From: Octopus vulgaris | Taxonomy: Eukaryota | Length of the DNA stretch: 64,000 bases | Direction: 5' to 3' | Assembly: GCA_951406725.2 (NCBI GenBank) | Contig: OX597830.1 | Coordinates: 51,770,001-51,834,000, forward strand | Shown: positions 2,318 to 63,420 of the stretch, in pieces | How positions within the stretch are numbered: the first letter of the stretch is position 1 | Layout: each line of letters opens with the position of its first letter | Translations under genes and position numbers: made by a program | The notes under the pieces: generated by a model | Database searches by the model: none | The model's input: the letters and a program-made list of their open reading frames with translations, nothing else | Told to the model about the DNA's origin: nothing

Positions 2318-2867
2318 ATGCCCTGATGCAGTACCTGACAGTGGCTTCTGATCTTAACTGATTGGAAGTGTTATCATGTACATTGTTTTGTCTTGGTATA
2401 AAAGATGAGCTACAGCAAATATTCTGCTCAATACCACAGATTTGCTTGTCAGTTGTTTGACCTTAACCAGTTGACTTAATGTCACTTAATGGCTCACGAT
2501 ATGTGCATCTCTGATCATGAGCACAAGTAGTGGGAGAGCATCATAGCCGTGTGTTGAAAGGAATTCTTAGAGGTTGGATAATTCCCCTTTGGAAACATGG
2601 TGGGGTTCGTTCAACATCCTTAAACAATCTTTATTCAGGGACCTTTTGAGCGGGATGGGCTACTCGACCAGAAGAAAATTGTAACTGAGCCCCACCTGCA
2701 AGGTCATGCGCTGTTTATCTTGATATGAGATCACCATGTCGCGCACATATGGTTGTGATGCATGTGCCTGGTGTACCCTTATCAGACGGGTAGTCATGAT
2801 GGGTGTACTGGGCTTCGTATATTTTACCCCAGTGTCACTTTGATGGCGTGCACTGCTCTCTCGCTCA
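2318..2867. mobile_element. Unclassified ~550-bp interspersed element embedded in (TAA)n/(CAA)n arrays
   Basis: Complex sequence with sharp boundaries to trinucleotide arrays on both sides; no ORF motif; single copy in window. Confidence 0.4.
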
Positions 2868-2869
2868 AT

Positions 2870-2905
<36 letters not shown>

Positions 2906-2963
2906 AATAATAATAATAATGATAATAATAATAACAATAATAATAATAATAGTAATAATAATG

Positions 2964-3019
<56 letters not shown>

Positions 3020-3023
3020 CATA

Positions 3024-3386
3024 TCAAGAGCACTCCGAGAGCGCAAACTTTGCCAAGGCATCACCAACGTCCTCTCAACGAATAGCCAGAGATTATTTTT
3101 AAAATGTGAATATCTGAAATAAACTCGACTGCTCTCACAAACGAGAATGCTAAAAATGAGCCTCACTGCTCTCAAATATTAAGGGGAAAAAAACGAAAAA
3201 TTCATCAAGAATCTTCGTCCAGTACCGGATCGATCTCGAAATTTTATCCGTTCGTGCCAGTTACGAGGCCAAACATCCTTGATAGTTTGGTCCGAATCCA
3301 TCCTGCGTTTCTTGAAATATCTTGTCTACAGACAAACAAACAAACACGGCTGGAAAAAGTAAGTCCCCCTTCACTTAGGCGGAAGC

Positions 3387-3392
<6 letters not shown>
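3024..3392 (-). mobile_element. Helentron-associated non-autonomous element (HINE/DINE-1-like)
   Basis: Terminal hairpin GCACTC-C-GAGAGCGC, degenerate subterminal IR ending GGCGGAAG, internal (CAAA)n, A/T-rich ends; second copy at 7591-8562. Confidence 0.6.
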
Positions 3393-3452
<60 letters not shown>

Positions 3453-3641
3453 TAGAAGAAGAAGAAGAAGAAGAAGAAGAAGAAGAAGAAGAAGAAGAAT
3501 GAATGAATGAATGAATGAATGAAACATTCGTAGTGGATGTAAATCGATGACCGATGTGTCGTTCGCTCAATGTTTTATTCAACCAGCCATTTCTCTTTTA
3601 CAGAAGATCTGAATAATATCATTCCGACGCTAAATATTATT

Positions 3642-3712
<71 letters not shown>

Positions 3713-3718
3713 TATCAC

Positions 3719-3767
<49 letters not shown>

Positions 3768-4543
3768 TTCATCAACATCATCATCGAATAACTACACAGA
3801 ACGAGTGGATATATTTATTGAACAACTGCGTGTGTTTTCTACAATCATTCTTTTTATGGAGTAGAGAAATGTTTTGTTTTTTTCTTGCTTTGTGCGGGGT
3901 TTAGGACCGTATCGAATCTACACTTGGATTCCATATTTCAATATGGCGCTCTTCTTCTATTTGCATCCAAAAAGCTTTAGAATGTTAGTTACATATTTCA
4001 ATAGGAGTAATAGATAGTGACAACAACGACGACGACGACGACGACGACGACGACAACAACAACAACAACAACAGTAGCAGCAACGTTAATGCCAACAATA
4101 ATAAAGACAGCAGCCAAAAAGATTCTTGGACTAAACCATACTCTGTAGAATACTATTCTTTCTTCAACCAATAAGATCTAAAGGAACCGTAGCAGACAAA
4201 AAGGAAAAAAGTAAAAATAGGAATGAGGAACAGCATATTTCTATGATAATATATTTGAATTGCAGTTGGTAGAAACGTATTTTGACGAAATTCTAGATAA
4301 TATTTGCATCCTATTAGTATATCTCAAGCAGAAATGAACAGCCTGTAAAAATGGTTTATAAATATTGAAATATATATATTACGGTCTTCCATATTTGATT
4401 TCTATTCATCGTAGCAAATAATGCTACACCTCATTCTGCTATAGTTATAACTATTTATATATCTTGTGTTTATTGCTGCCGCCATTGGTTTCGTTATTTT
4501 GTTCTTGTTGTTGATGTTGAGGTATTGTTGGTATTGATGTTAA

Positions 4544-4765
4544 TGGCAGAACCGTTAGCACGCCGGGCGAAATGCGTAGCCGTATTTCGTCTGCCGTTAC
4601 GTTCTGGGTTCAAATTCCGCCGAGGTCCACTTTGCCTTTCATCCTTTCGGGGTCGATAAATTCAGTACCAGTTACGCCCTGGGGTCGATGTAATCGACTT
4701 AATACCTATCTCTGTCCTTGTTTGTCCCTTCTGTGTTTAGCCCCTTGTGGGCAGTAAAGAAATAG
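4544..4765 (+). mobile_element. tRNA-derived SINE family A; other copies 4877-5092 +, 5105-5240 +, 8977-9100 +, 43230-43315 -, 45300-45410 -, 53115-53230 -
   Basis: A-box-like TGGCAGAACCGTTAG, B-box GGTTCAAATTCC, shared body GCCTTTCATCCTTTCGGGGTCGATAAA..AGTACCAG; many near-identical copies in window. Confidence 0.85.
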
Positions 4766-6098
4766 CTAATATTGTCGCTGTTGTTGATGATGTCGTTGTT
4801 GTTTTTGTTGTTGCTGCTGTTGTGATTGTTTCAGTTTTATTTCTTGCTGCTCTTATTATTACTTCTCTTGTTTAAAGCGGCGAGCTAGCAGAACAGTTAG
4901 CAAGGTGGGGGAAATGCTTAGCGGCATTTCGTCCGTCTTTACGTTCTGAGTTCAAATTCCGGCGAGATCAACCTTGGCTTTCATCCTTTTGGTAGTCGAT
5001 AAAATAAGTACCAGGTGCACACAGGGGTCGATATAATCGATTAGCCCAACCTCCAAAATATCAGGTATTGTGCCTTTAGTAGGAAGGATTATTGCAGATG
5101 TTCTTTCAAATTCCGCCGAGGTTGACGTTGCTTTTCATCCCCACGGCGACGATAAAATAAGTACCAGATGAATACTGTGGTCGGTGTAACCGACTTACTG
5201 CTCCTTTAAAATGGCGAGCCCTTTGCCAACATTCGAAACAATTATTACTCTTGTTGTTTTGCTACTGCTGTATGCTGTGCTATTTTACCTACTTCAGTAG
5301 CAACAGATATAGTACTAGTAAGTGTAGTAGCAGTAATAGCAGCAGCAACAACAGCCGTTCAAGAATTTGGACATGGAGATCTCCATTTTCAGCGACTTCG
5401 AGGGCCACTACCCCAGTGGTGCCGGGCGTCAACGAAGAGCCCTCGACTACAACAAGACGACCAAAGTTTTTTTTTTCCGGGGTCTGGGGTCTCCCGCCCC
5501 TAAGCCCTAGACGATCACCTAATAATCCCTTACCGGTCATGTTGCTTAACAACAACAACAACAACAACAGCAAAAACAAGTGCTTCAGCAGTGGCTATAA
5601 CTGTAAGAGTGGTAGTAATAGTAGTAGCAACGACACTTGCTCGGACTGTCTATTTTATTCCTACTCGGCCAATAATTAGTACAAGTATTACATAAATGAT
5701 CACTACCCCTACCACATTTCTACTGAATTCAATCACTGTTTTGCGATTCTAGGTTTGAGTTCTTTTACACAATCATAACGAACCCGGTAGATATCTGCTG
5801 AATCTCAACTTCATAGATCTCTTAATATAGAACTACTATTTTAAGAGTTTTGACCTAAAGGAACACAGTTTGATACTCTTCTACAGAGGCAAACAGAACC
5901 AGACACTCATATATCTGTGTGTGTTGGTGGGGGGAAGGCATGTTTAGGTATACTTATATGTAAGTATACGCATATATGCATGTATGTATTTATACAAACG
6001 TGTATATATATACATACATATATACTTACATATATATATATATACATACTAATACATACATACATATATATATATACATGCATATATATATATAAATG

Positions 6099-13640: not shown

Positions 13641-16080
13641 TATAATCTTCCGGTGCGAATGGTTTTTTTTTTTTTATACGGCGCCGTTTTTACAATACTG
13701 GAAATAATAATAATTATATTTTTATATAAGATTATAAAACTTATGGCGATCACAGTGCAATGACTAAGAAAAATAATCTAATAAATGGGGCATATAAGCC
13801 CCCGACAGAAAAAAGAAGTCTTTCGTATCCGCTATATGTATGTATATATATAAGAATGCCATATTAATATGGCGATAACAATTAATTTATATATATATAT
13901 ATAAATTTAAAGTGATTGCAAGGCATAACTATGCGGAAACAGCATCGACCTTTTTAGAAATAGGTGCTAAATTATTAATATAACCACCGGAAGGCATCAA
14001 ATAGCAGAAAAACAACAGTAGGGGAAGAAACGGATAAAGATTCAAGATATTAAAAAAGCATACCATTAAAAATACGCTCTTGTATTAAATGGGTGAAGGT
14101 AAAGATATATTTTACCATTAATTTATATTACAAATATGAAAATGGAGAAACACATTAGTTGGTTTATCAGCTTTAGGATATTAGAATGTTGTCTTATTTA
14201 ATTAACAAAACTACAACCATAATAACATACATATATACGGTATAAAATTAAATAAATTTAAGATAAGAATACAAATAGTTATTTTTAAAAATATAAATTG
14301 TTAGAATCTTTAAAATCACTTAATCATGCCGTGTTGTTTGTGTGTCTTTTTAGGACGTTAAATAAATGACTAAACTTAAAATAGTACTTGGTTGGATTAA
14401 TCTTTTGTACGGTGGTTATAGGATGGATAAATAATAAAAATGATAGCAGTATACGCCAATAGGTTGTGGTCAAAGAAGGAGAAAAGATACAATAAGGAGT
14501 TAGAGTAATCGTAATAGTATTTGATAATTGTTTCTAATACTAAATAATAATATGTATCATAATAAAGTGCTAATCGATTAAATGTAATTTTTTACTTACT
14601 ACTAGGTGTTTCATCCTATCCACCTATTGTCCAAAGTGAGATAGGCCAAGGTCCAGCGCACGCTATAATTGGGCAGTTCAAATTTGAAACAAAAGACCAG
14701 CTATTGCGACCGTTGACACGGGGTAAGCTAAATAAATGAATGGAAGAATGATATATGCTATAAGGGACCCGAAATCGCTTAAAGCAGTGTAAACTAAAAG
14801 TACAATATAATACAATAAGTAAGACCAATACTATTATTAAAATTTAGAGAAATACCGATTTGGACATTTGGGAATTTAGTCGGTTGATGAGAAGTGGTCA
14901 AAAAGCTTTTGAAATCATAAAATAAGTGTGAAAATCATTAAAAGAGAATGAAAAGGATTTTTGCTTTGGACAATTAAGGTTGAATAAGAATGGTTTAGGG
15001 GAATTAATAACTAGGGTAAGTGGCCTAAATTAGAAGTTTACAAGGCTACCAATCACTCTGTTGATTAACTAGCCAGTGCACCTGATCAATGAGGTAACTA
15101 TTCAATCAAACAACTAATTAACTAAAGAATCTATAAATCGATCATCCTAGTTATCAATTAAATAAGTTAATGTATATATCTCTAATTAATCAGTTAATGA
15201 AAACAAATTGAAATACTTGCAAATTATTTTCAGGGATACAAGCACTTATTACAATTTGCTCCTGCAAACATACTTAAATAAATTCACAATAAAGTGTGTG
15301 CACGTATGCACACACTCACATAAATATAAATATATATGTGTATGTACATACACAGGTATGCACCCTCACATACATTTATTAAAAATTACTACGATTACAC
15401 TAACTCCTTATTGTATCTTTGCTCCTTCTTTGACCAAACCTATTGGCGTATACTGCTATCATTTTTATTATTTATCCATCCTATGCACCCCGTACAAAGG
15501 AATTACCCAACCAAGTACTATTTTAAGCTTAATCATTTACTTAACGTCCTAAAGAGACACACAAACAGCACGGTATCATTATAAACATATCCAATTTTTC
15601 CTTTTATCCCTTGACCCTTCTTTTTATTATTTCTTTATTTATTACACTAATGAATCTCCATGTTTAAGATCGGTTTCATTACCAAATATGATAAATATCT
15701 TTAGCATATGAATGTCAATACCACACAACATGGGAAGCAGAAACAGCAATTAGATTGGATGCAATCTTTTTTTAATGAATTAATAAATAATAATTGATGT
15801 GATACAATTGTTGTTCATCAGTTATATGTCCATTTTCTGATTTCTTTATATTCTGATTCCCCATAAACTCATGTTTATCCTTGTCTATACCTATAATTTA
15901 TGAGAATAATATGCTTGCATATGTATGCCCATGCTTAAGTATAAGTAATATACCGGTAGTATATTGGATACCCTTTTCCCTTAGATGGCTGTCTTAACCT
16001 CTAACATATATATATATTGACACACACAAACACACACACTCACATATATTTGAATATATACATATATATATATATATATA

Positions 16081-16275
16081 CAATTCATAATTAAGGGCAA
16101 ACGAAAAAACAATATGTCCAATTTTTCAGCATATCTGGCATTAGAATTTTTTTCATTTGCCCTTAATTATGAATTGTTTATAGATTCAACCTTTGAAGGT
16201 ATTTTTTGATATGCTGGCCATTGATAAAATTTTTTGGGGAAAATAATATTTCTTTTCGAAAAAAATTTTATCCTT
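16081..16275. mobile_element. Penelope-like terminal-repeat fragment with inverted end; homologous (inverted) to 63150-63290
   Basis: CAATTCATAATTAAGGGCAAA / TTTGCCCTTAATTATGAATTG inverted pair; 16123-16273 is the reverse complement of 63150-63280, which adjoins an intact hammerhead. Confidence 0.6.
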
Positions 16276-16279
16276 CATT

Positions 16280-16353
<74 letters not shown>

Positions 16354-18049: not shown

Positions 18050-19950
18050 ATTCCTGCCCGACCAGACTTCTCGCCTCTGCTAAACACCTGGACGGCTCCA
18101 AGACGGGCCAATTTAGCACAAATCTGAAGGTATCGTCAGAAGGAGTCCCTTATCTTGAACAGGTCGTTCTCCCTCATGACCTTCTCAGCCATCTGCGGAG
18201 GACAGTCAGGGTCCTCCGTGCAGGACGGAATCCCCTCCCTTCGGCCCTTCGATTTAAGCTTCTTGACAAAGCCCCCTACTGTCCCTTCCTTATGGAAGAG
18301 GACCACAAATTCCTCCTCTGTATCAGAGAGGGGATGTAAAATTTCCATCTTTGGTGGCACAAATCCACCAAAGATGCTTCGTGACACGCCGGCAGTGAGT
18401 CATAAACCACCCGTAGTGTGTCACAAACCGCCGGCGATGTCCCATTTTTTCTTTTTTTCTTTTTTTACTTTGAGTCAAAGGAGGCTGGAGTTTCTCCGCC
18501 TTGTCCAGCAGATCCTCCTTCCCTTCCGCAGCCCTCGGATCCTTCGGTGGGCAACCATTGTTGCCCACCTTTCGCTTTTTTTCCTTTTTTCGAAGATGTT
18601 TCCACCTCCCTCCAATGAGGGAGCAGGGAGCGGTATTTTTATCAACAGCTCCAGGACCTTATTTTGGTCCTTAGGGCAGATCTTTTTGATATGGCCCGGT
18701 TCCAGGCACTGATGACACTTGGGGGAGGGCGCCCCTCAAGCATCACCGGATACCTAGATCTGGTATTTCCAAATAATCTGGAAATACTAGATTTTCGGCT
18801 GATTGGGTCCATAAGGTCAAAACAACTTTTGACCCCTCCCAATCAGCCGCAGGCAGAATATATTTCTTTACTATCCACAAGGGGCTAAACACAGAGGGGA
18901 CAAACAAGGACAGACAAAGGGATTAAGTCGACTACATCGACCCCAGTGCGTAACTGGTACTTAATTTATCGACCCCGAAAGGATGAAAGGCAAAGTCGGC
19001 ATCGGCGGAATTTGAACTCGGAACGTAACGACAGACGAAATACGGCTACTAATTTCGCCCGGCGTGCTAACGTTTCTACCAGCTCGTTTCTACCAGAATA
19101 TTGACATTGAGGAGCTTGGTACTGCTGCCACCCAGACCCCGGCGGATAGTATCTTCTATCCACTCGGGTTCAATTCCGAGTGGCAAACCGCTGACCCTAG
19201 CCCTCGTCAACTTCTTCCCACAATATGTGGGAAGAAACAAAATTTCCTTGCCCTCCAGGGGCTGGCTTGTGAATTCGCATGCTTCTTCGGGGGAGTCAAA
19301 CAGCAACCACAACGTTGCATATTTGACTCTCACCTCGAGAGATGTATTTAATAGCTGGCATATAATCTGCCAGCTCCTTTTCTTTCACTTTTTCTTCCTT
19401 TCAAATTTTTCTAGCCATTTTTGGGAGGTGTTATTCCCCATTCTGTCAGTTTGTTTTTTGCCATGTGCAAAATTAAAAGTTCTAAAGACAGTCTACAAAA
19501 GATCAAATAATAAAGAAAAAAAGAAAGTATTAATACAAAGGAAGAAAAAATTAAAATAAACAGTTCAATACAGTTTTTCACAAAATAAATGACGGAAGAA
19601 GAGAACGAGAGTTCAAAACACAGCAAAAACAAATAGTTTTCGAACACACAGTACTCCCGGCCTTCAATGTTTTTCTCAATTCCTGTCCAAATGGCGGTGC
19701 CCCAGCATGGCCACAGCTCATAAGCTGAAACTAGAATCAATCAATCAATCTTCGAAATTGTTCCTTTCAAAAAACCTTCCACGAAGTCAAACAGACACTG
19801 TTTTCACAAATAATTGCGAATATCACAATACTCAAATTAAATTTGGAGGTGGGACACCCCTCAAACAGCAGTTCTCGCAATTAAGTGAGAAAAACAAACT
19901 GCTCTACCGCATGAAGATCAAAACCCAGAACCCAGTGAGGAATCCTTGCT
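18050..19950 (-). mobile_element. Tx1/L1-like retrotransposon 5' half (ORF1 with CCHC knuckle), decayed, interrupted by SINEs
   Basis: ATLWLLFDSPEEA..FLPTYCGKKLTRARVSGLPLGIEPEWI..YPVMLEGRPP, then CHQCLEPGHIKKIC (CX2CX4HX4C, 18676-18717). Confidence 0.7.
18862..19093 (-). mobile_element. SINE family A inserted in the LINE ORF1, with 8-bp target-site duplication
   Basis: Full family-A sequence on minus strand; CAGAATAT at 18854-18861 and 19094-19101; removing it rejoins the ORF1 reading (..LNVNILPAADW..). Confidence 0.85.
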
Positions 19951-21544: not shown

Positions 21545-21830
21545 TTTTGGGGATGCATTTGACCACAGTGTATGGGTCGTTGTCATTTGTTCTGTTACCG
21601 GGTGGATCCAGCACATCGAGACTGTAGGGGATGACCTGTTCAATACCAAGTATACCCTCCCTGCATGTGTCGGTTCACAAAAAGTATTAGCACATGTGCC
21701 CAACATGAGATGTAGGCCTTCGGAACCTGATTCAGCCATCTCTGGATTTCATCCCACAGGTGTTCAATTGGGTTCAAATCCGGGCTGAGTGACGGCCATA
21801 GCATGGTTCTGATGTTTCTTTTGCATATTC
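21545..21830 (-). mobile_element. Tc1-family (DD34E) transposase 3' fragment
   Basis: [22 protein letters not shown] contains the [12 protein letters not shown] motif. Confidence 0.85.
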
Positions 21831-21943
21831 TTAGTTTATGCATATGTATGCAAATATAGTATGGGTATATCCCATTTATGTTCAATAGAAATTAAATAAG
21901 TAAAAAAATGTTGACATATACGAATATTTATTTCCCCCGACTG

Positions 21944-27414: not shown

Positions 27415-28558
27415 TTTTAATCTAAAATATATTCTCATTTTCTACAATGCTCTTCCATTTATCTGGTAGACTTGAAATGTCCTTCTTCCAAAATTCACTT
27501 CACCGTGACGAAAGGTACTCCTTCAGTAGTGTACTGTCCTTGTCTACAGAATTCATAGCTTTTTCTGACCAAATGATTTTCAAGACTGGAATAAATGATA
27601 ATCAGTTGGGGTAATGTCTGGCGAATATGGTGGATGGGACATCGTTTCCCATTCAAACTGCTCCAGCCTTTGAAATGTCATCCTCGCTGTATAGGCCGAG
27701 CATTATCCTGAAGGAAGAACACATTTCGTCTTGTATGATGACCGTTTTTCTTCTAATGCTGACTTAAGCTGCTCATGCAGCTTGCAGTAGATCTCCTTTG
27801 TTATCGTATGGTTTGGGTTTAAAAGTTCAAAGGGGATTAAACCTTTCATGTCTCACCAAACAGATAACAAGACCTTACGTGGGTGAAAACTTTCTTTAGC
27901 CTGAGGTGCCGGTGTTTCTCTTTTTCCTGCCAAATGTCCTCGGCGCTTGGCATTTTTATAGAAAACCCATTTCTTGTTACCAGACATTATTCGGTCCAAA
28001 GAAGATTCACACGTGTGATGTGACATTAACTCTCTGCGCGCGATTAGACTCGAAAAGTTTCTGAGGAACCCATTGACCCCAATTGCTGACTTTTCCGATG
28101 GCGCGCAGGTGTCGATGAATGATTGAATTACCAAATCCAAGCTTTTCTGCAAGTTCATGGATAATTACAAGGTTTGCAGGACTTCATCGTCGAACTCTAC
28201 AGATCTTCCAGGAAGAGGCTCATCTTCTAGGCTGTGGTTTCCAGCTCGGAATGTCTGGAACCACCGTTGACGCTGGCTTACACTTATTGTCCGATCCCTT
28301 AATATTCCGTTGTGTTATTGCCTTTATTGAACACAGAAAGCAAATTATGCTGAGTATGCTCCTTTGTCACCTCCATTATAGCTTTGAAAAAATAACTGTT
28401 AAAATCGAACTGCACTCTTCAAAACTCTCACTAAGAAAAAGGACAAGGTAAAATTACTACCTGCATTTATAGCAAATATATGCAGGTAGTTTATCCTGTA
28501 CTCCACCGAATTTTAGTTCATGTATTTGAAAAACTGCATTATTTATGGGTTGACCCAA
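27415..28558 (-). mobile_element. Near-full-length decayed mariner transposon
   Basis: TIR-like end (TA)TTGGGTCAACCCATAAATAATGC at 28536-28560; LDRIMSGNKKWVFY (GDEKW motif), HPRKVLLSVW, FLQDNAR, HPPYSPD (27616-27636). Confidence 0.88.
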
Positions 28559-29990: not shown

Positions 29991-30934
29991 TATATATATA
30001 TAGAGAGACATATGCATTTACGCATACATGTATGTATGTGTGCATATGTGCGTGTGTTTGCGAATGTGTCCCCAAATCTTCAGAGCTGGTATCTAAATCC
30101 ATTATAAAATGAAATAATGAATATATTAATTTGTTAAAATGTAATTCCCCGTAATACCATAATATAGACATAATATGATAACGTAATATATGGGCCATTT
30201 TTTTATTTTTCGTGTATCATTACAGCTATTAGCTAATTAATTTAGTGGGGGGGGGGGGGATTTTGTAGGCACACACTATATCTATGTTTATATGCATATG
30301 TGTAAGTGTGGTGTGTGTGTGTGTTGAAATATAGATGTGTGCGTGTGTATTTGTTTGAATGTAAGCATTAAAGTAGATATATGCATGTATGTATGTATGT
30401 ATGTATGTATGTATGTATGTATGTATGAATGTTTGTATGTATGTATGTATGTATGTATTATGTATCTATGTATGTACGTATATGTACATAAATGGCTTGT
30501 GTAATAATAGAGCCGATTTATATGAGTAAGTTAGGAGTAAACTATGGATGTCTTTACCTCCATGAAATGTAAAACCCATGCTGCATATTATCTTCTTTGT
30601 TCACCCAAAATGTCATATAAACATAATAAAATAGGGTAATAATAATAAATTATTATTACCAGTCGGTGCTCCAGCATAAAGGCGGTGCTCCAGCATGGCC
30701 GCAGTCAAATGGCTGAAACAAGTAAAAGAGTAAAGAGTAAAAGAGTGGCCTAGCACAAAAGACGAAACTGGCCTTGGCAAATATATCTTGTTTGTTTGCT
30801 GAAAATAGTTAGAAACCGTTGGTCTGGGATATAGTTGAGATGGTAAATGTTCTTAATTTTCATCCCTTTCATGAATTTATCCCTTTTTGTGTTCTAGCAC
30901 AACGCTTCCTTATTTGGAAGCCTCTTATTGTATT

Positions 30935-34737: not shown

Positions 34738-35157
34738 GGCGCAGGAGTGGCTGTGTGGTAAGTAGCTTGCCTACCAACCACATGGTTCTGGGTTCAGTCC
34801 CACTGCGTGACATCTTGGGCAAGTGTCTTCTGCTATAGCCTCGGGCCGACCAATGCCTTGTGAGTGGATTTGGTAGACGGAAACTGAAAGAAGCCTGTCG
34901 TATATATGTATATATGTGTGTGTATGTGTATGTATATGTTTGTGTGTCTGTGTTTGTCCCTCTAGCATTGCTTGACAACCGATGTTGGTGTGTTTACGTC
35001 CCCGTCACTTGCTGTTCGGCAAAAAGAGACCGATAGAATAAGTACTGAGCTTACAAAGAATAAGTCCCGGGTTCGATTTGCTCGACTAAAGGCGGTGCTC
35101 CAGCATGGCCGCAGTCAAATGACTGAAACAAGTAAAAGAGTAAAAGAGTAAAGAGTA
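34738..35157 (+). mobile_element. tRNA-derived SINE family B, full length; other copies 36180-36642 +, 39355-39777 +, 42118-42425 +, 47886-48264 -, fragments 17640-17760 -, 30662-30745 +, 47300-47660 -
   Basis: A-box TGGCTGTGTGG, B-box GGTTCAGTCCC, internal (TA/TG)n, GGCGGTGCTCCAGCATGGCC, (AAAGAGTA)n tail; copies nearly identical. Confidence 0.9.
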
Positions 35158-36415: not shown

Positions 36416-39400
36416 GTATTGATCTATATATGTGTGTCTGTGCTTGTCCCTCCAACATCGCTTGACAACCTATGCTGGTGCGTTTACGTCCCCGTAACTT
36501 AACTTAGCGGTTCGGTAAGAGAGACTGATAGAATAAGTACTAGGCTTACAAATAATAAGTCCTGGGGTCGATTTGCTCGACTAAAGGCGGTGCCCTAACA
36601 TGGCTGCAGTCACATGACTGAAACAAGTAAAAGAATAAAAGATTAAAAAAAACAAATCGAGCAACTATCAATTTGCCTAGATCAGCTTCTGACAGATCCA
36701 CACACAAGCATTTGGTTGTACCGAGGCGATTTCCGTTGTAACTTGGAATGGCACTTTTGTATCCTTCTATATGTTGGATATACAGATTTCACGAACTGGA
36801 GATAGACACAACTGACTTCATACGGCGTACTTCAGCTTTTAGTCGGCTCCAGGCCATAGTTGAAGACACTTGACCAAAGTAGCACGCTGTGGGATTGAAC
36901 ACAGAACCATGTGTTTGGGAAGCAACTATATTGATGTCTGTCTATTCTTTCGTTATTTCATCAAAAGAATTGGTTGAAATGAAATATGAGGAAATTATGC
37001 CGGATTAGGTAACTTTGAGGAAATCCTTTAATCCACTCTACGAATAATTAAGATCGATATGATGACATAGAGATCCTGTATTGATATCGATTTTCGTAGA
37101 AGTAACTTCATGTAAATATGATTTCTGTTCTCAGCAGCTGACGATGTTGAGTAAGGGATGTTAAGGTACAGAATTAGAACGGAAATGGAAGAGAAATAAT
37201 TCAGAGAAAGAGAGAGAGAGAGCGAGCGGAGAGAAGGGAAAGACGGAAAGAAAGACTGGGACATAAAGTAAGGAAAAGTGGGTAAAGAAATAGAAGATGA
37301 GAGAAAAGAGAGTTTGGAGTGAGGGAAAACGATTAAGAGAGAGATGGAGACAGACAAAGACAGAAAGATAGAGACAGGACAGAGAGAGAGAATGGAGGAG
37401 AGAGTAAGAGAGAGATAGCAAAGTAAGAATGAAAAGCATGAGAGAGAGACAGATAAAAAAAGGTTGAGAAAGTGGGAAAGAGGAGGAGAAGCGAGGGATT
37501 TAGTGACAGAGATAGAAACAAAGAAGAAGACAAAGGGGATCTAGAGAAAGTGTGGCAGTAAAGCACAGAGAGAAGGGGGGGAAGAAAGAGTGGGAATTAC
37601 TATTAAGTGAAGGCAATAATTGGTAGCATTGCAGGTAAATTAGAAGCCGTTATTGAAGGCAACGCTATGGCTAAAACAATTAGGAAACAGAAGTGAATGC
37701 TCTACAGGGTTTAGTGACATGTTTTGTGAATTTTCTATTTATAAAGATTGATTTGGCGTTCGGGGTTCTCTCCCCACACTCTCTCTCAAGGATTGATTGA
37801 ATAGTTATTGAACAAACATCGACAATAATTTAATTACCTGAGATTTGCCAACAATGTCTAATGTCTCCGATGAATATAAAAATTTCTGTTTAAGAAAATG
37901 TAGAGAACATTCCGCTAGAAATCTGCTTGATCAGGGCTTTCAAAGGGGACCTGTCATTTCATTTAGGGGAATCTGTCTTCTAATTCAAGCCAACACAATC
38001 TAGAATGTTCTGGTAGTGTTTCAAGTATTAGCCTTACCCGCTACGCAAGCTTACAACTATGTTTTCAGGTACCGAGGTAGAATTTGAACTCTGGATGCGA
38101 AAAGGCTGGAAATATAGCATAAATTGTTTCGTTCGATGCCTCAAAGAAGTCCATAAACCCGCTGCCATGAAACGGGGCTTTATCAATCGATTCCGATGGG
38201 ATGAAAGACGAAGTTGGCCTCGGTCGAATGCAGAGCACCAGAACGCACATCACCAGTCATTCTGTTTTCCATTCCAACGGGGTAATTCCCTACCTCAGGT
38301 TTTCGGTTAAGTGAAAACAATAACCTCGAAACTATTTTATTTTCCCGTAAAATATCCGATATAGTCTTGTTCAGCTACATTTAGCTATTGATTCAGGTAT
38401 TAAGGTAAGCAACATCTTTTATCGACTAGCATTGATCAGGACGACAGAGTCACCACATACCCAATTACTTCTAGAATTATGGCATTTATCTCATAAATCT
38501 CGGATATGTATGGGATTGTTTCATCATTCTATCTTTTGAAGCCAGTAATATTTCGGCTCGCCACTCTTCACAAGAACACTGCGGTTTTGTGGGATTTTCA
38601 CCGACAGCCACCGTACAAACACCAACAATTCGGTCAAGATTACCAGCCGCAGTTTTCTTCAAAGATCATGGAAGGTTCCAGCACCCATGGATTAAATCGA
38701 TCTAAGTGCTTCCAAAAGATAAAAGCTACAAGATAATTTCAGGATAAATTTAAAACAATATGAAGAAAAGAAAGAAGAAAAAAAAACATTTGATGAAATA
38801 ATATGAATGCTAAACTCGAACTCACAACATACAAGTCGGTAACTAAATACCTTGAGGAACTTTGTCTGATGCTAAACTGAATTTGTTTTAACAGCAATCT
38901 ACATTTGCCTTATCAGTAATCTACATTAATCTGCCTTTAATTCCTTTGTGTTTTTTGTTTCACAAAACCGCTTCAAAATAAACACTGACACTATCAATTT
39001 GTTGTTCGTTTCATTTGACGGATGGAGTGTTTTCATAATAGCTATATGCAACAGCATCTTCCCTTCAGCATTATCTCTAAATACTTTAAAATCCAGAGAA
39101 AAATGGGCGTGGTCGAAAAATATTTATTGTTAAATAAATAACTGGCCATCTCACTATAATTAAAAGATTACAAAGCTTTTTACTTTCTGCTCATTCGAAT
39201 CTGCGGCAACTAATTCCTTTTTTTTTTTTTTTTTTGCTTTGTCTGTTTCATTATTCCTGGAAATGGATGGTTATCTCGGCTCATTGATTGAAACTTTGTT
39301 TTTTAATATTTAACACAGATGAATCTTTTTGAATACAATTTATCATTGTTTAGTCAGGTAGTGGCTGTGTGGTAAGTAGCTTGCTAACCAATCACATGGT

Positions 39401-40229
39401 TCCGGGTTCAGTCCCACTGCATGGCATCTTGGGCAAGTGTCTTCTGCTATAGCCCCGGGCCGACCAATGCCTTGTGAGTGGATTTGGTAGACGGAAACTG
39501 AAAGAAGCCTGTCGTATATATGTATATATATATATATGTGTGTGTGAATATGTTTGTGTGTGTGTTTGTGTGTCTGTGTTTGTCCCCCTAGCATTGCTTG
39601 ACAACCGATGCTGGTGTGTTTACGTCCCCGTCACTTAGCGGTTCGGCAAAAGAGACCGATAGAATAAGTACTGGGCTTACAAAGAATAAGTCCCGGGGTC
39701 GATTTGCTCGACTAAAGGCGGTGCTCCAGCATGGCCGCAGTCAAATGACTGAAACAAGTAAAAAGAGAGTAAAAGAATATATTAACAAAAACAAAGAAAA
39801 AAAAAACAGAAAGCAATTGAAGCAAGGATTTTAAGTGACTTTATAAACCAAAATTTATTGGTAGAGCAACGGAAAATGTTGTGCCAGAATAAATAGAATA
39901 ACAGACTGTACAATGACATTGGAACGTTGCAGTAATAAAATTGCCAGAATATTAAAACCAAATGCCTTGCGATCCTTCTTTTTCCTTCTTAGTTCAAATC
40001 CCGCTGATTATGTCCTTGCGCTTCGTTTTTCCTAACACTCATATCATGAAATAGCAATCAAACGTTGCGTTGTCTTATGTACAGGATTGCCAGGCTGAAT
40101 TTCACGAATTTTATGTCTATTTTCGAGGGGAAATGCTTGATGTATAGGGAAACAGCCAACGGCATTGGAGAGCATAAAAATTACTGTTCTGGGTGCAAGA
40201 AAGTTAACTGACATGGAGAACTGGAAGCC

Positions 40230-43844: not shown

Positions 43845-44307
43845 TGAATGTATATAGACGTATACTTGCATATACATATTCATATATGTACATATGTATG
43901 TATGTATTTGTGTACATGTGTACACACGCATGGAAAAACGCACCCATAGTACACGCACAGTGCACACACACACTCACACACACATGAATATATTACTTAT
44001 ATGGAGTTTAACCTAATCAGTAACACATGAGGCCAGTGTTCTAAACCATCAAATAAATATTGTCACCCATAACTCTTCATAGGAAATGAAGACTACATCT
44101 ATACTCTGATTCATGTATTGATTTCTTTTTCTCCTCTTTCAAAACCATGACTTTCAAAAGCGTATGTACGTCACACACACATACACACATACACATTCAC
44201 ACACACATACACAACAACCCATAAAAATCATGGTATCCAATCGCAGGGTCTATGTTCCTAGTGTATACCAGCGTAAAGTTAAATGGAGATTCTAATGAAA
44301 GAGATAC

Positions 44308-45267
44308 TTCTGGAGGGTCATTAGTGAAACGTGTGGTCGAGCATTGTCATGAAGAATGATTGGCCCTCTTCTGTTGACAAGTCTGGGACGGAGGAGTAGA
44401 AGTCTTCCGTTCATTTTGGCAATTTCATGGCGATATGTTACAGCAGTAATGGTTTTCCCGGGTTTTAAGAAGTTATAGTGGATAAGTCCAGTAGTACACC
44501 ACCAAACAGTCACCATAAACTTCTTTTGAAGAACTCTGGTTTAGGGAAGGTTTTTGTTGCTTTATTTTGGTCCACCCACTGGGAAGAATCTTTTTTTATC
44601 ATTGTACAAATCCACTTTTCTTCGCAAATTACAATACCATTGTGAAAAGGATCCGTCTGTTTACGGAGAAGAAGCGATGAGCATATTTCATAGGGGGGCG
44701 ATTTCTGATTTTCATTCAAATCAAGTGGTACCGATTTGTGGAGCTTTTTTTGATTTTCCAGTCACATGTAAATGGCTGCCGACAGTTTTCTGGCTAACTT
44801 GAATTTCTTTTGCCAGTTCTTAAGTGGTTGTACGTGGATTTTTCTCAACGACTGCCTTTATTTGGCCATCGTCGATGACACATGGGCATCCATTATGCTC
44901 AGGATTTTCATGGCTCAGGTCTCCACTGCGAAATCGTTTAAATCCTTTTCGAGCTGACCACTCGCTGGTCATTTCCTCACCAAATGTTTCGTCGATATCG
45001 CAAGCAGATTCAGCTACTTCACGTTCTTTTTTGAAGTTGAATAACAAAATTGTTTGAATATTGCGCTTTGCCAGTTCTATTTCAGATGATTATAACAACG
45101 GTGAAAAATATCAATGTTAACTTTTTGATGTATTTCGGCAAGTCTATGTCTATATTATCAGACAATTACAAAAAAAAAGAAAATGTTTTAAAAGATTCAA
45201 AACTCAGCAAAAATCCGGTACAAATTCTTCATGGCTCAAAATGTTGCCTACTTTTTACTCAACCTAG
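44308..45267 (-). mobile_element. Decayed mariner transposon, 3'-truncated
   Basis: TIR-like (TA)CTAGGTTGAGTAAAAAG; HTH ..GFKRFRSGD..; IVICEEKWI; MVTVWW..GLIHYNFLKPG..ILHDNARPH. Confidence 0.9.
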
Positions 45268-46366: not shown

Positions 46367-46821
<455 letters not shown>

Positions 46822-46824
46822 CAA

Positions 46825-47221
46825 GGTCAGCCATATTAAGATGGCTAGTATACTTTACGTTGTCGAGCGCTTAGTGTTTACATCTCGCTCAGAGATTTAT
46901 TATTGCTTTCAGACCGTTTTTCGAAATCAGTGACAGTGGTTACTGAAAAAACATTAAATAGATATACGCAAACAGGTCTCTCTTATCGAAAACCCGTGAT
47001 TAGCGTGTGTTGACAAGAGACAATAATCTCGAAACTGCAGTCCATGCGTATCACTTAGGTTTTCGAGAGGGGATGACTTCCCTTTGCGAATATCATTAAA
47101 GGGCACAGGATTGTGTCTAAAGCCAGCTGGAGACGATGATCTCCTGGGGCTAAGAAGCTACACTAACACCCCCACCCCTAGTGGTTAGCCATATTAAGAT
47201 GACTAGTATACTTTACCTTAT
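46825..47221 (+). mobile_element. Retrozyme-like unit 2: 358-bp period with 39-bp terminal direct repeat and intact hammerhead
   Basis: 46825-46863 repeated at 47183-47221; hammerhead at 46996-47054; homologous to 19967-20380. Confidence 0.78.
46996..47054 (+). ncRNA. Type I hammerhead ribozyme, U3-A8 core variant
   Basis: GTGAT-TA-GCGTGTG / TTGACAA / GAGA-CAATAA-TCTC / GAAAC-TGCA-GTC^ / CATGCGT-ATCAC; predicted cleavage after 47042. Confidence 0.8.
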
Positions 47222-47365
47222 ATAAATGCAGTTATGCAGAAATGCATTCCTATTTTGTATTTGTGTAACTTACTTATAAATGTTATAATCTCCAACTTTT
47301 ATTCTGAAACTTGTTTCTGTCATTAGACTGTGGTCATGCTGGGACACCAGACAGCCACTCCTGCG

Positions 47366-47418
<53 letters not shown>

Positions 47419-47822
47419 CTGTGTGTGTCCGGGTGTTTCTTTGTGTCTGTATTTCATCCCACGACCGCTTGACGACTGCTTAACTTTTTATATACTCATT
47501 TTCCTCGAGTTCACCAGTGTGTACAAGTGATTTCTGTATACTCTTGTTTCTGTCATTAGAATGTGGCCATGCTTGGGCACCGTCTTGAAGAATAGTTTTA
47601 GTCGGATGACTCGACCCCACGTATGTTTTTGATTTAAACGCTGTACTTATTCTATCAATCACTAATGTCCAGTATGTGTAGTGTGTTTGTTGAGCCGTTT
47701 GGACTCTAATTTCTAACAATACAGTGTACTATCTTGTACCCTGATTATAAATCAATAATTTCTCATTTTGGGCTTTTTATGTTTGTCAACCACTTATATT
47801 ATTTTTTTATTAACAATAAATT

Positions 47823-47888
<66 letters not shown>

Positions 47889-48274
47889 TTTTATTCCTTT
47901 ATGTTTTTACTTGTTCCGGTCATTTGACTGCGGCGATGCTGGAGCACCACCTTTAGTCTAGTACTTATTCTATCAGTCTCATCTACAGAACCACTAAGTT
48001 ACGGGGACGTAAACACACCAACATCGGTTGTCAAGTGATGGTGGGTTACAAACACAGACACAAATAGATACATACATATATGTACATATAATGTATATAC
48101 TTATACGACAGACTTGTTTCAGTTTCCGTCTACCAAATCCACCGACATGGCTTTGATCGTCCCAAGGCTATAGTAGAAGACACTTGCTCAAGTTAAAACG
48201 CAGTGTGATTGAACCCAGAATCATGTGGTTGGGAAACAAGATTCTTACCACACAACCTGCGCCTTACATAAGTA

Positions 48275-50984: not shown

Positions 50985-51810
50985 TAGGTCTGGTGATTTC
51001 AAGCTGACTTGGCTTTGATATCAGATCTGGTAGATTAAGTTTCACTTGGTTTCAATTTTAGATCTGATGGATGAAAGACTAACTGGCTTTGACTTTAGAT
51101 ATGATGGATTAATTATTGACCTAGCTTTTATGTAACACCTGAAGGATTAACGCTCACTTGTCTTTCATCTAGGTATGTACCGTCAGTCATTACTCAAGGT
51201 AGGCAGTTGGTGAGCTTTATGTAGTAAAACACAAAAACTGTGAAGGCAGATTTATTTCTTCCTTTATAGCACGTAAAGAAAATGGTGTTGTAGAAGTGTA
51301 CGCAGCATGTGTACTACAATACTACAATGCGTAGCTTAAATACTGAGATTGAAAAGCAGGGGCGAATTATGCCTACCTATTCTACAAAACAAAAATATTT
51401 TGCATTTCATGCATAGTAATTACAGTAATCTTCCTAATTTTATTGACTTAGGTGCACATTTTGCCATAAATGGAAAATGCTGCTATCGATCTCTTCTATT
51501 CAAGGTAGGAGTGCCTACATTGCCTACATAGGCAGCACGTCCCTGCTTTCATCATCTATTTGATCTGGCTTTGATTTCCTTTTTAATCTGATGAATTAGC
51601 ACTGATTTGGTTTAGATGTCAGATCTGATGGATTAATGGCGATCTGTCTTTGATATTAGATCTGATGGATTAATGCTAACGTGACTTTGATTTTATATAT
51701 AGAGGATCAATGGTGATCTGGCTCTGATTTTAGATTTAATGAATTAACTATGACGTTGCTTTGATCTTTGATTTTATATCTAATGAATTACCGCTAACCT
51801 GGATTTAATC
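50985..51810. repeat. Degenerate ~37-bp minisatellite (AGATCTGATGGATTAATGCTGACTTGGCTTTGATTTT-like), interrupted at ~51175-51555
   Basis: About 5 units at 50985-51172 and about 6 at 51560-51810. Confidence 0.75.
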
Positions 51811-54097: not shown

Positions 54098-55005
54098 TAC
54101 CTGGTCTGATCAATAAGTATCCGGACTGTTGCCATAGTAGCGAAGCTAAAGAACGAAGAGTAAGGCAACTAGGCAACGATTGACCGTGAACTCTGTTGTG
54201 CTTGCGCTCTAAATGTTAAGGTCCTAGCTTACTTTCGCTCTTTACAGCAGTGCTTGGAAGGAAGTTGTTTAGCGTGTGATCGTCGCATTGACCATGGTAG
54301 AGAAAGTTGTCATGGTGATACCGGCTCAGAATCCTACGCAAAATTGCAGAAAGTGTATGGAGAAGAGTGCATGAGCCGCACAAAAGTGTACGAGTGGTTC
54401 AGACGTTTCAAACATGGCCGAAAAGTTATCGATGTTGAGGAATGCTCTTGGAGACACGCAAGCAGCAGAACTGAGAAAGACATCGCAGATGTGCGTGCAG
54501 CTGTGAGGGGAAATCGTTAAATCACCATCCGTGAGTTATCAGAGGATGTGCAGATTAGTTCCGTTCTAGTTCAGTCCATTATCACTGAAACTTTGGGTAT
54601 GAGACGCGTGTCTGCCACGTTTGTGCCAAAACTGCATTTAGCTTACCAAAAAGACACTAGGGTTTCACTTGCAAAACATCTTGATTATGGTCGAGAATTA
54701 TTAGGAATTTTCGAAAAGTTTGCGAAGGCCTCTGAGCAGGTTTCAGGAAGCTTTTGGCAAAATTTGATGCAGATTCTCTGCTCAGCTTTCTCTGTCATGG
54801 TCAATGCGACGATTACACGCTACACACCTTCCTTCCTTCCTTCCTTCCTTCCAAGCACTGCTGTAAACAGAGGAAGTAAGCTAGAACGTTTAAACTTAGT
54901 GTGCATGCAGAGCCGACTTTAAGATCTCTGCGAAATGGCTTTACTCTGCGTGCTTTAGCTTCGTTGCTATGACACCATCCGGATACTTATTGATCAAACT
55001 ACTTA
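54098..55005 (+). mobile_element. Internally deleted mariner (irritans-like) with long TIRs
   Basis: TGATCAATAAGTATCCGGA..CGAAGCTAAAG / CTTTAGCTTCG..TCCGGATACTTATTGATCA; HTH LQKVYGEECMSRTKVYEWFRRFK, LGMRRVSATFVPKL; catalytic domain absent. Confidence 0.88.
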
Positions 55006-55857: not shown

Positions 55858-56057
55858 ATTATTTTATGTTTGCCTTTTGCTTTGTATTTGTATAAGTTGA
55901 CTCCAAGTCCCATCCAGAGACCTTGAATTTGTTTTAAAATTTGAGATTACATAGATAATATTTTACGTAGGATATGGGCAGTTTCCATGTGCACTCTCTT
56001 TTGAATTTCTGTCATTTTGGGGTCTCCTGGTATCTGAACTAGGTAGGAATCAGCCCC
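55858..56057 (-). mobile_element. Dong/R4-like LINE extreme 3' end plus UTR
   Basis: IPGDPKMTEIQKRVHMETAHILRKILSM*, followed by short UTR and (TAA)n array. Confidence 0.7.
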
Positions 56058-57470
56058 TATACATAACGATCCCCACGCTATGCGATACGTCGTAGAGAGG
56101 GCTGGCACAAAAGCTGGCTTCGGTGGAGCCCTGATCAATTTGGATCAATCAAAAGCATTCGATAAGGTCGATCATCGCTATTTGGAAGCCGTCCTTAAAT
56201 CAGCCGGTTTTGGACCCGTTTTCAAGGGCTGGATCGCTTCAATGCTCAGCGGCACCTGCTCGGTGGTCAAAGTAAATGGCTATCTATAGGAAACATTTAT
56301 CATCGTACGCTCGGTCTGTCAAGACTGCCCCCTGTCACTTCTTCTGTATGTGATGGCTTTCGAGCCACTGCTGCAAAAGTTTGAACAATTAAGGGTCATC
56401 CCTTTCGAACTGGGATTCAGACGAGCAGTGTCTGCATACACAGACGACATCACCGTCATGGTGTCGGATGACCCCAGAGTGGAGACGGTCGACTACATTC
56501 TAGAAGAATATGAGTCGGTTGCAGGGGCTAAAATCAATGCCGAGATGTCGGTGGGCTTGCGACTGGGCACCCGGAGAGGCAGATCGATGCTTTCAGATGG
56601 CATCGTCGGACGCTGGACTAACGTGCCAGTTAAACTGCTCAGGGCCTGGTTTACTTCTGACCTCCATGTGGATAAGAAATGGAAAGAGGTGACGAACAGG
56701 GTGTACAGTCTTACCCACCAATGGGCTGAGAGGAAGCTGTCCTTAACAGGTGAGTCAGAGGTGGCGAATGCCTACATCACCTCCGTTATTATTTATCGTC
56801 TGACCATCGTGCCACGTTCCAGTTATTGCTTGGTCTAGCTGGAGCGTCTCCTGCTCATGTTCTTGTAGAGGGGATGCGTTCCAATGGTCATGCGGTATAT
56901 CTGCCGTCAGCTCTCTCTGAGTGGCGACTCAGTCATGGCGTGGCTTTTCATGAGCAGACATGCTCTCAGGTTGCGCCATCTGCAATGGTTTCTAGAAGGT
57001 GAACGCGTGTGGGCTCCGTTTGTGAGGCACATATTTCCACAACTCGTCCTGGGTGAAGAATAGATCAAGACTGGGCGTCTGTCACTGTCTTCTACCAGTC
57101 GGGCAATAGGATCGGCAGATGTTCCACTTTAGCTATTTATAGAGGATCAGTGATGGGAAAGTGCGACGATGTCCTAGGGGAGACACTGGCCGTTAACGAA
57201 GACGAACTAACTAGTCTGTTCCGGAGGACTTTCTGGTCGGGAGCTACTATGAATAATTTTCAGATGTCTCTGCTCTGGTAGTTCTAACGGAAGGTGCTAA
57301 CGGTTCGAGATAAACTTTACATGTACGAAGATGTTGTCAGACGGGCTTGTCCGAGGTGCACGCAGAGGAAACCATTCTGCATGCACTCGTTCAGTGTCCA
57401 GAAATTGCTGACTTGTCGAGTCATGTCGAACAGCTACTGTCCTGTGTATGACGGATCTGTCTGTCACCCG
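56058..57470 (+). mobile_element. Tx1/L1-like retrotransposon ORF2 (RT to C-terminal zinc finger), decayed
   Basis: LINLDQSKAFDKVDH, SVCQDCPLS, SAYTDDIT, AGAKIN, RKLSLTG, CPRC; several stops. Confidence 0.9.
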
Positions 57471-57510: not shown

Positions 57511-57850
57511 GGTGGAAGGCTGGCAGAAACGTTAGCATGCCGGGCGAAATGCTTAGCGGTATTTCGCCTGCTGCTACGTTCTGTGTTCAAATTCCACCGA
57601 GGTCAACTTTGCCTTTCATCCTTTCGGGGTCGATTAAATAAGTACCAGTTACGCACTTAATCCCTTTGTCTGTCCTTGTTTGTCCCCTCTGTGTTTAGCC
57701 TCTTGTGGGTAGTAAAGAAATAGGCATTTCGCTCGCCGCTACGTTCTGAGTTCAAATTCCGCCGAGGTCGAATTTGCCTTTCATCTAATCGTGGTGCCCC
57801 AGCATGGCCACAGCTCGTGAGCTGAAACTAGTTGAAATAGAAATATTGAA
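57511..57850 (+). mobile_element. SINE family A with partial tandem duplication and GGTGCCCCAGCATGGCC tail (same tail alone at 19692-19750)
   Basis: 57724-57785 repeats 57558-57620. Confidence 0.82.
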
Positions 57851-63349: not shown

Positions 63350-63420
63350 CGTTATTACCGTATTGGTCCAATTTCGGGGTTAATTCATAAGAAATGTTCC
63401 CCTCTTCAGCGGCAAATACG
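63350..63420 (-). ncRNA. Canonical type I hammerhead ribozyme in Penelope-like terminal repeat (63150-63440)
   Basis: TTGCCG / CTGAAGA / GGGG-19 nt-CCCC / GAAA-TTGG-A-CCAA-TA^ / CGGTAA; all core nucleotides canonical. Confidence 0.85.

Follow-up and report, generated by a model that had tools for sequence, protein, structure and literature searches.

A U3-A8 variant hammerhead motif in a dispersed 358-nt repeat of Octopus vulgaris, probably a further animal non-LTR retrozyme

At 46975-47072 of the 64,000-nt stretch of octopus DNA analysed here (the window), there is a hammerhead-like motif whose core reads TTGACAA in place of CTGANGA. This raises the question whether the motif is an intact ribozyme or a decayed one, in which form it might cleave, and what kind of element has brought it to this place. 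We consider, with a probability of about 0.7, that the locus is a dispersed copy of a high-copy non-coding repeat, that is, a non-LTR retrozyme whose RNA would show dimer-dependent cleavage, form a circle and be copied back in the Penelope manner.

Sequence inspection reveals a full-size type I hammerhead motif in 46975-47072, with U3 at 47010, A8 at 47015 and C17 at 47042. Its parts are as follows.

46978..47071, plus strand: outer rod around the ribozyme, with helices 46978-46982/47067-47071, 46986-46994/47058-47066 and 46996-47000/47050-47054 (pair probabilities 0.68-1.0 in the 98-mer)
47001..47003, plus strand: internal loop 1, 5' strand U-A-G, opposite U47049; predicted docking site for loop 2, from its likeness to the Schistosoma loop
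47004..47009, plus strand: 5' strand of helix I, 6 bp with 47043-47048 (from the fold and pair-preserving variants)
47010..47016, plus strand: catalytic core U3-U4-G5-A6-C7-A8-A9 (TTGACAA), from the sequence
47017..47030, plus strand: helix II, 4 bp (47017-47020/47027-47030), with the hexaloop CAAUAA (probability 0.85-0.99)
47031..47042, plus strand: G12-A13-A14 (G12 at 47031, GAAA at 47031-47034), helix III and C17, with the predicted cut after 47042

The invariant hammerhead bases (U4 G5 A6, A9, G12 A13 A14, A15.1-U16.1 and H17) are all present, and the Watson-Crick 3-8 pair is kept as U47010-A47015. The cleavage triplet is GUC, with C17 at 47042, and helix III is the palindrome ACTGCAGT at 47034-47041, in which A15.1 is 47034 and U16.1 is 47041. 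The first-pass annotation had reported this core with its U-A 3-8 pair, the GUC triplet and the palindromic stem III, and all of them lie where it had placed them. In the cleaving register, stem I pairs 47009-47003 with 47043-47049 as G-C, U-A, G.U, U.G, G-C, C-G and G.U. Distal to it there are a UA bulge (47001-47002) and the GTGAT/ATCAC helix (46996-47000/47050-47054), and then a 1x3 internal loop and the 9-bp helix TCGAAAACC/GGTTTTCGA. The same annotation had drawn a long extended stem I through GTGAT/ATCAC and TCGAAAACC/GGTTTTCGA with a 2-nt bulge. Both helices and the UA bulge exist and the pairing does continue, but the second interruption is the 1x3 internal loop and not a 2-nt bulge, and the whole is rather a 6-bp helix, a loop-1 docking site and then a rod belonging to the whole element. 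For the 98-mer, the computed fold has -35.6 kcal/mol (z -4.54), a value that none of 200 shuffles reaches. The three helices, with helix I open, are supported by covariation, which rests on matched depths and not on phased reads. Judged by its letters, the motif is an intact type I hammerhead with U3-A8 in place of C3-G8.

We searched the window with a type I descriptor that tolerated any pair at positions 3-8. Only two matches appear in 64 kb, namely the motif at 47010 and a canonical one at 63409 on the minus strand, while none appears in any of 20 windows shuffled block-wise with dinucleotides preserved. Rfam, on the other hand, gives 0 matches of any kind over the whole window at gathering level, and four weak matches in 46820-47230 at E<=10, none of them to a hammerhead family. 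This miss might speak for a chance look-alike within an ordinary SINE-like repeat, but the empty shuffles, the covariation and the existence of sister subfamilies with canonical cores (see below) argue against it; the idea is hardly credible, and we have rejected it. The Rfam miss is a limit of the models, a match to them being no defining biological feature, as the canonical motif at 63409 is overlooked as well (no hammerhead match at E<=10).

This second hammerhead (63415-63355, minus strand) is of type I and unrelated to the first. It has a CUGAAGA core with C3 at 63409, a 6-bp stem I, a 4-bp G-C stem II with a 19-nt loop, a near-palindromic helix III and an AUA triplet. It comes after a (TA)n run, and a 76% copy of the 150 nt that lie downstream of it is found at 16124-16293.

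Is the U3-A8 pair then a trait of a family or the decay of one copy? Family data were taken from contigs of public sequencing runs, 20 of the 24 listed runs carrying part of the stretch; these runs bear four organism labels and come from nine studies, with a best share of 0.40, and the run index lists none of them as RNA. Four DNA-type runs were aligned to 46815-47360 (546 bases), and three presumed-RNA runs and one DNA run to 46950-47125, in all seven distinct runs of the 24. On the 546 bases we have found 2,819-5,072 contigs per DNA run, part of which lie on the neighbouring repeat 47309-47348. The highest summed depth belongs to a very abundant SINE-like repeat with at least 8 copies in the window, seen at 47296-47349, 47543-47581, 47910-47948 and 30684-30734, with further copies at 35094-35146, 36589-36641, 39720-39759 and 57792-57833.

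The depth is far from even along the unit, where summed contig depth is no copy count: the flanks 46834-46909 and 47119-47213 are 15-40x deeper than the bin of the U3-A8 core, and the 3' half of the ribozyme is several-fold deeper. Loose contig ends show this helix III preceded by other 5' halves, with CTGATGA, CTGAGGA, CCGAAGA or CTGACAA as the core. This accounts for the deficit in the core bin, and it implies a larger family, with C3-G8 as well, in which the U3-A8 form makes up one subfamily. Within the subfamily, A8 is near-fixed: A8>G has a depth of 27.2 of 23,198.6 in DNA run X4, and is otherwise seen in one divergent contig of X12 (31.7 of 129.1). No variant row is listed for position 47010 in either set of alignments. 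The variant table for 46950-47125 omits rows that the longer alignment gives for one and the same run (46966, 46984 T>A, 47044, 47070 and 47088), so that the absence of C at position 3 is taken from the per-run tallies of the longer alignment: these exclude T>C at a share of 5% or above in X10 and X4, since all four T>C places of X10 lie elsewhere and the two of X4 are 47078 and 46984. Between 47003 and 47049 there are 17 variant rows, and the core is affected in only two of them, namely A8>G and a G12>A in one contig (depth 4.49).

The variants in the stems tend to keep the pairs. In stem II, 47020 A>G and 47027 T>C have equal depth in X12 (69.9/69.9), X17 (11.4/11.4) and X19 (15.4/15.4) and near-equal depth in X2 (8155/8430) and X10 (585/550), which is a change from A-U to G-C with pairing kept if the partners go together. 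The pair 47008-47044 is U-A in the octopus copy, U.G in most of the family depth, and also C-G; 47044 is G in 88-99% of depth, sister subfamilies included. Other stem variants turn 47005/47047 from G-C to A-U, 47007 from G.U to A-U, and 47030 to G.U. Helix III varies at 47037 (G>A) and 47038 (C>T), with equal depth in X12 (31.7) and X17 (20.2), and less even depths in X4 (96.3/62.7) and X19 (0/4.49). Taken together, the two changes leave the 8-nt palindrome perfect, and they exchange one base pair for another only if the helix is formed by two molecules. This family variation supports the earlier suggestion that the palindromic stem III is suited to a dimer. A further change there, 47039 A>G (23% in X4), yields wobbles only.

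Overall, since A8 is near-fixed, stem variation is pair-preserving and C3-G8 sister subfamilies exist, U3-A8 is a subfamily trait and not decay. We also considered a private double mutation of a C3-G8 copy, and rejected it. Motif pattern scans of metagenome contigs and of viral contigs, collections not expected to contain the family, gave 0 matches and hence no sign of a viral or microbial origin there.

The outer end of helix I deserves a closer look. The Schistosoma ribozyme combines an internal loop 1 of the sequence U1C2C3A4:G5U6A7C8 with a loop 2 that reads CAAAUA. There, the 3' A of loop 2 is paired with U1, while C8 is turned out of its helix and into loop 2 (PMC2632901). In the octopus copy, helix I (6 bp) gives way to U47049 in one strand and to U-U-A-G (47000-47003) in the other. 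That is, like the full-length Schistosoma mansoni hammerhead (PMC2632901), it has the 5' U on the 3' strand of loop 1 (47049), U-A on the 5' strand, and a hexaloop 2 with C...A ends, including the loop 2 3' A (47026). Unlike it, the octopus copy has G and not a pyrimidine at 47003, the equivalent of C8, and U3-A8 instead of C3-G8. In the family, 47003 is C in 25-32% of the depth in four DNA runs, and the loop 2 variants 47024 T>A and 47025 A>T in family contigs produce CAAAUA, the Schistosoma loop 2 itself. By this analogy, the 2-nt "bulge" is predicted to be the canonical loop-1 docking site.

How the motif might cleave was approached by folding with four parameter sets at 37 and 15 C, i.e., 8 settings, with tertiary contacts omitted. 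The minimum-energy fold of the monomer has stem I slipped by 2 nt (47003-47007 with 47043-47047), out of the cleaving register, and sequesters the helix III loop; the slip is possible because 47003 is G. The cleaving monomer lies 6.8 kcal/mol above this minimum (Turner 2004). The slipped monomer has a probability of 0.88-1.0 in three of the four parameter sets and of 0.07-0.19 in Andronescu 2007, the only set that gives the monomer's cleaving register a probability of 0.76-0.88. In the two-strand fold, helix III has a probability of 0.99-1.0 in all 8 settings (pair probabilities 0.84-0.99 in a separate dimer computation), and the dimer is 5.7-9.2 kcal/mol below two monomers. The 8-bp homoduplex of ACTGCAGT is computed at -11.1 kcal/mol. 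Stem I of the dimer is in the cleaving register at 7-17% in two parameter sets and at 73-93% in the other two. For comparison, the canonical motif at 63409 is predicted off by 3.8 kcal/mol with the same method.

According to these models, the activity of this copy as a monomer is doubtful, since stem I is slipped in three of the four sets, 47003 is G, and the locus has a single hammerhead; activity appears plausible for the dimer and for the family. The earlier judgement that the motif is probably still active can be kept in the latter sense, but it does not extend to the monomer of this copy.

One may argue that the family is a retrozyme family but that the U3-A8 ribozyme is efficient as a monomer, with loop docking and co-transcriptional folding overriding the slip. 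The cleaving register prevails with Andronescu 2007, the hammerheads of invertebrate retrozymes mostly cleave as monomers (PMC7761336), and the nearest-neighbour models lack tertiary contacts and look pessimistic, as the result for the canonical 63409 motif indicates. Against this, a single pair beyond A15.1-U16.1 with a palindromic tetraloop is the design of the dimer-needing axolotl ribozyme (PMC7229834), where the Amex1 monomer cleaves 6% in an hour and the dimer much better. The palindrome-preserving double change in helix III and the G at the C8-equivalent position point the same way, and we find monomer efficiency rather unlikely.

The opposite reading takes the ribozyme of the U3-A8 subfamily, or of this copy at any rate, to be without catalytic activity, a passenger spread by reverse transcription of uncut tandem RNA. 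It is consistent with the slipped stem I in most predictions, with the finding that only one of nine predicted Xenopus retrozyme dimers cleaved in vitro and eight were inactive (bioRxiv 10.64898/2026.07.22.740005), and with ribozyme mutants of a Penelope element that insert in vitro (PMC11167929). Contigs of the presumed-RNA runs also cross the cut site 47042/47043 uncut and almost unchanged (X12, 71 nt with 0 differences; X17, 93 with 1; X19, 95 with 2), where the "RNA" label is a guess and each site has 1-4 contigs; aligned with no silent-stretch control, they fall short of proving expression. Such contigs would, however, also be expected from precursors, ligated circles or DNA. Moreover, the invariant core bases are all kept, with 2 of 17 variant rows hitting the core and the stem rows pair-preserving, and U3-A8 ribozymes are active in vitro and arise by natural covariation (PMC3088659). 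We regard a dead ribozyme as unlikely; the ribozyme is probably functional at the family level.

The same presumed-RNA runs show another pattern. At 47003, 47008 and 47020-47027, near-canonical alleles are commoner in them than in the DNA run of the same label, with 1-3 contigs per site. For example, the G-C form of 47020/47027 constitutes 49-58% of depth in X12, X17 and X19 (1-3 contigs each) and ~2% in X4, a DNA run that shares their organism label; under other labels, DNA runs have 9-59%. Preferential expression of the more canonical alleles is a lead, no more.

We now turn to the element around the ribozyme. The layout of the insertion is as follows.

46812..46823, no strand: left target-site duplication, where a (TA)n microsatellite ends; identical to 47219-47230 in 11 of 12 letters
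46824..47218, plus strand: whole insertion, 395 bp, i.e., one 358-nt unit plus a 37-nt terminal redundancy (direct repeat at 358 spacing; family depth ends at ~47216)
about 46824..46860, plus strand: 5' copy of the 37-nt repeat, containing a 6-bp hairpin (92% identity to the 3' copy; fold)
47156..47190, plus strand: AC-rich segment before the 3' repeat, a candidate start of reverse transcription, from the sequence and by analogy to PMC11167929
about 47182..47218, plus strand: 3' copy of the 37-nt repeat, with the length of a Penelope-like "tail" (direct repeat, family depth)
47219..47230, no strand: right target-site duplication, matching the left 12-mer

The left 12-mer is matched equally well at 52 of 63,988 window positions, so a match exactly at the opposite end of the insertion is unlikely by chance. 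The right end is also marked by the family depth, which drops sharply past ~47216 in all four DNA runs and is zero at 47233-47251. At 13833-13903, stretches of 42-48 nt match the left junction region weakly (about 79%) and in both orientations; they may come from a related copy whose end has decayed, or reflect nothing but the TA run.

Within the insertion, no ORF exceeds 30 codons (the longest ATG ORF has 30 codons), and the AC-rich core 47160-47178 precedes the 3' copy of the 37-nt repeat. The 358-nt unit has 42% GC, and its circular fold is 60% paired, with a z of -4.05 for the ribozyme strand (0 of 60 shuffles) vs -2.18 for the other strand (1 of 60). These values are in line with those of retrozyme units, which have ~170-400 nt, GC under 50% and a strongly self-paired fold. 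As in retrozymes too, the family is multi-copy, each unit has one type I hammerhead, and the target-site duplication is longer than 4 bp (12 bp with one mismatch, at one locus). Of tandem copies, the defining layout of non-LTR retrozymes, we have found none in the 64-kb window, and 46824-47218 has one hammerhead. With one ribozyme only, the locus itself probably could not release unit-length RNA. Weak support for tandem copies comes from joints that read beyond the tail in two single-contig cases, 47201 to 46871 (X4) and 47195 to 46875 (X7). Joints that go back from 47169/47175 to 46824/46825 were considered as tandem junctions and rejected, the 37-nt tail alone accounting for them.

The surroundings are those of an animal repeat landscape, AT-rich (GC 0.28-0.47 in 2-kb bins), with plentiful microsatellites (120 rows) and Tc1/mariner remnants. 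Transposase remnants of the latter (HTH_48, Transposase_1, DDE_3) lie at 44295-45089 (-), 54173-54517 (+), 27856-28164 (-) and 21643-21891 (-), and a tandem repeat of period 37 with 3.4 copies at 51621-51747.

The hammerhead lies roughly in the middle of the insertion: between the predicted cut and the left end there are 218 nt, and between it and the right end 176 nt. As the cut is ~180-220 nt away from both ends, the insertion ends were not made by the ribozyme, and the same distances require a circle or a head-to-tail transcript as the template. What we infer is cleavage after C47042, a circular RNA and Penelope machinery. The RNA would cleave itself after C47042, mainly when two ribozyme copies pair via the palindromic helix III. 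Following the retrozyme model, head-to-tail transcripts would be cut at each unit (PMC7229834, PMC7761336), a host ligase would close the 358-nt monomer into a small circle, and the reverse transcriptase of a retroelement would copy more than one unit. A Penelope-type reverse transcriptase would then copy the RNA back into AT-rich DNA; the insertion runs from the tail start once round to the tail end.

Penelope-like elements leave a tail of 30-40 bp and favour microsatellites (PMC8557442). In the anole, a Penelope protein cuts one strand of AT-rich DNA and begins synthesis at either of two positions in an AC-rich stem-loop, the distance between them being equal to the tail (PMC11167929). The octopus insertion has a 37-nt redundancy at the edge of a (TA)n run, and this redundancy fits the 30-40-nt tail between two start sites of a Penelope reverse transcriptase. 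In that system, ribozyme mutants still insert in vitro and cleavage is not needed (PMC11167929); by this analogy, an uncut tandem RNA would be an equally possible template. No Penelope protein and no GIY-YIG domain is found among the 103 window ORFs scanned, and no ORF with reverse transcriptase and GIY-YIG lies in or adjoins the insertion. As for reverse transcriptases, the window holds two adjacent weak hits (E about 0.005) at 56047-56835 (+), and a zinc-knuckle hit at 18478-18735 (-), which are decayed retroelements.

The Penelope signatures also allow another reading, in which an autonomous Penelope-like element left a pseudo-LTR here, solo or truncated, that was copied from its long linear RNA with no small circle. 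Both the 37-nt tail and the (TA)n target are such signatures (PMC8557442, PMC11167929), U3-A8 is known in Penelope pseudo-LTR hammerheads (PMC4209133), and retrozymes and pseudo-LTRs are homologous in Xenopus (bioRxiv 10.64898/2026.07.22.740005). In each run, 20-36 contigs go on past 47216 into different, partly shared sequence (agreement 0.51-0.61), which would suit a longer element. But the metazoan pseudo-LTR hammerheads are minimal, with a long helix II and an ill-defined loop 1 (PMC4209133), while the octopus one is canonical with docking loops. In addition, the unit closes on itself at exactly 358 nt and folds strongly as a whole, and no coding remnant adjoins the insertion. A pseudo-LTR origin is thus improbable in our view. 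The contigs that share the 3' part of the unit enter AT-rich, partly common sequence past 47216, which could be a sister family or an autonomous partner element.

Returning to the retrozyme reading, it may be carried one step further. The slipped monomer or circle would be silent and the dimer would cut, as a built-in dimer switch; the 3-8 pair would be swapped between living subfamilies; and the 358 + 37 form would be the footprint of a Penelope reverse transcriptase acting on circular RNA. We offer this combination tentatively, as possible but short of an even chance. If true, the carrier of animal retrozymes would be named, and a circle could be tested against uncut tandem RNA as the template. 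The clean ends, i.e., a unit plus a 37-nt tail within a 12-bp target-site duplication, offer a way to learn by which enzyme animal retrozymes are mobilised and what it copies; for dimer cleavage, the family supplies a ready test set in its natural variants of the 3-8 pair (C3-G8/U3-A8) and of the palindrome.

The literature already describes hammerheads of this class, the exchange to U3-A8, cleavage by dimers, and retrozymes. The earlier statement that 3-8 compensatory variants occur in Penelope-associated hammerheads is borne out in print by the U3-A8 of Cercyon (PMC4209133), and in our literature search the minimal hammerheads of Penelope elements were the only ones for which U3-A8 was named. 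This search found no description of a cephalopod retrozyme, though the supplementary alignments of PMC7229834 and PMC4209133 may include such a motif. The 2026 octopus repeat annotation (PMC13282606) has, in its accessible part, 0 mentions of ribozyme or retrozyme, and for the giant squid genome 235 Rfam hammerheads are reported as a count only (PMC6962438, accessible part). As had been anticipated, the U3-A8 core escapes the CUGANGA descriptor. Since searches with this descriptor and with Rfam miss the U3-A8 subfamily, animal retrozyme counts are too low.

Among the known systems, the axolotl/newt HHR_Amex1 (PMC7229834) shares with the octopus motif the one base pair and palindromic tetraloop in helix III, the loop 1/loop 2 design and the predicted dimer dependence, whereas U3-A8, the G at the extrahelical loop-1 position and the competing slipped register are features of the octopus copy. 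The minimal hammerhead of the Schistosoma Penelope-like element Cercyon (PMC4209133) has the same 3-8 covariation, a palindromic helix III region and dispersed single motifs. Unlike the octopus motif, it has a helix II of 7-8 bp, a helix I of 4-5 bp and an ill-defined loop 1, and resides in pseudo-LTRs of coding elements; the octopus hammerhead is full-size, with a helix II of 4 bp and a helix I of 6 bp, in a non-coding unit. A minimal Penelope pseudo-LTR hammerhead was therefore rejected for this locus, in view of these helix lengths and the canonical loops. With Penelope-like elements in general (PMC8557442, PMC11167929), the insertion has in common a tail of 30-40 bp, an AT-rich or microsatellite target and an AC-rich segment at the candidate start, but it is without an ORF for reverse transcriptase or GIY-YIG.

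The closest likeness is to the animal non-LTR retrozymes. The non-coding unit of 358 nt compares with 350-390 nt in mussel and 330/350 nt in axolotl (PMC7229834); GC under 50%, a self-paired fold and a canonical-size type I hammerhead are shared (PMC7229834; bioRxiv 10.64898/2026.07.22.740005), and so are a target-site duplication longer than 4 bp and the lack of an LTR/PBS layout, with solo monomers known (PMC7229834). The differences are the U3-A8 core of the octopus element and its form as a monomer with a 37-nt tail. Overall, the octopus repeat is probably a further animal non-LTR retrozyme, and is likely to be mobilised by Penelope machinery.
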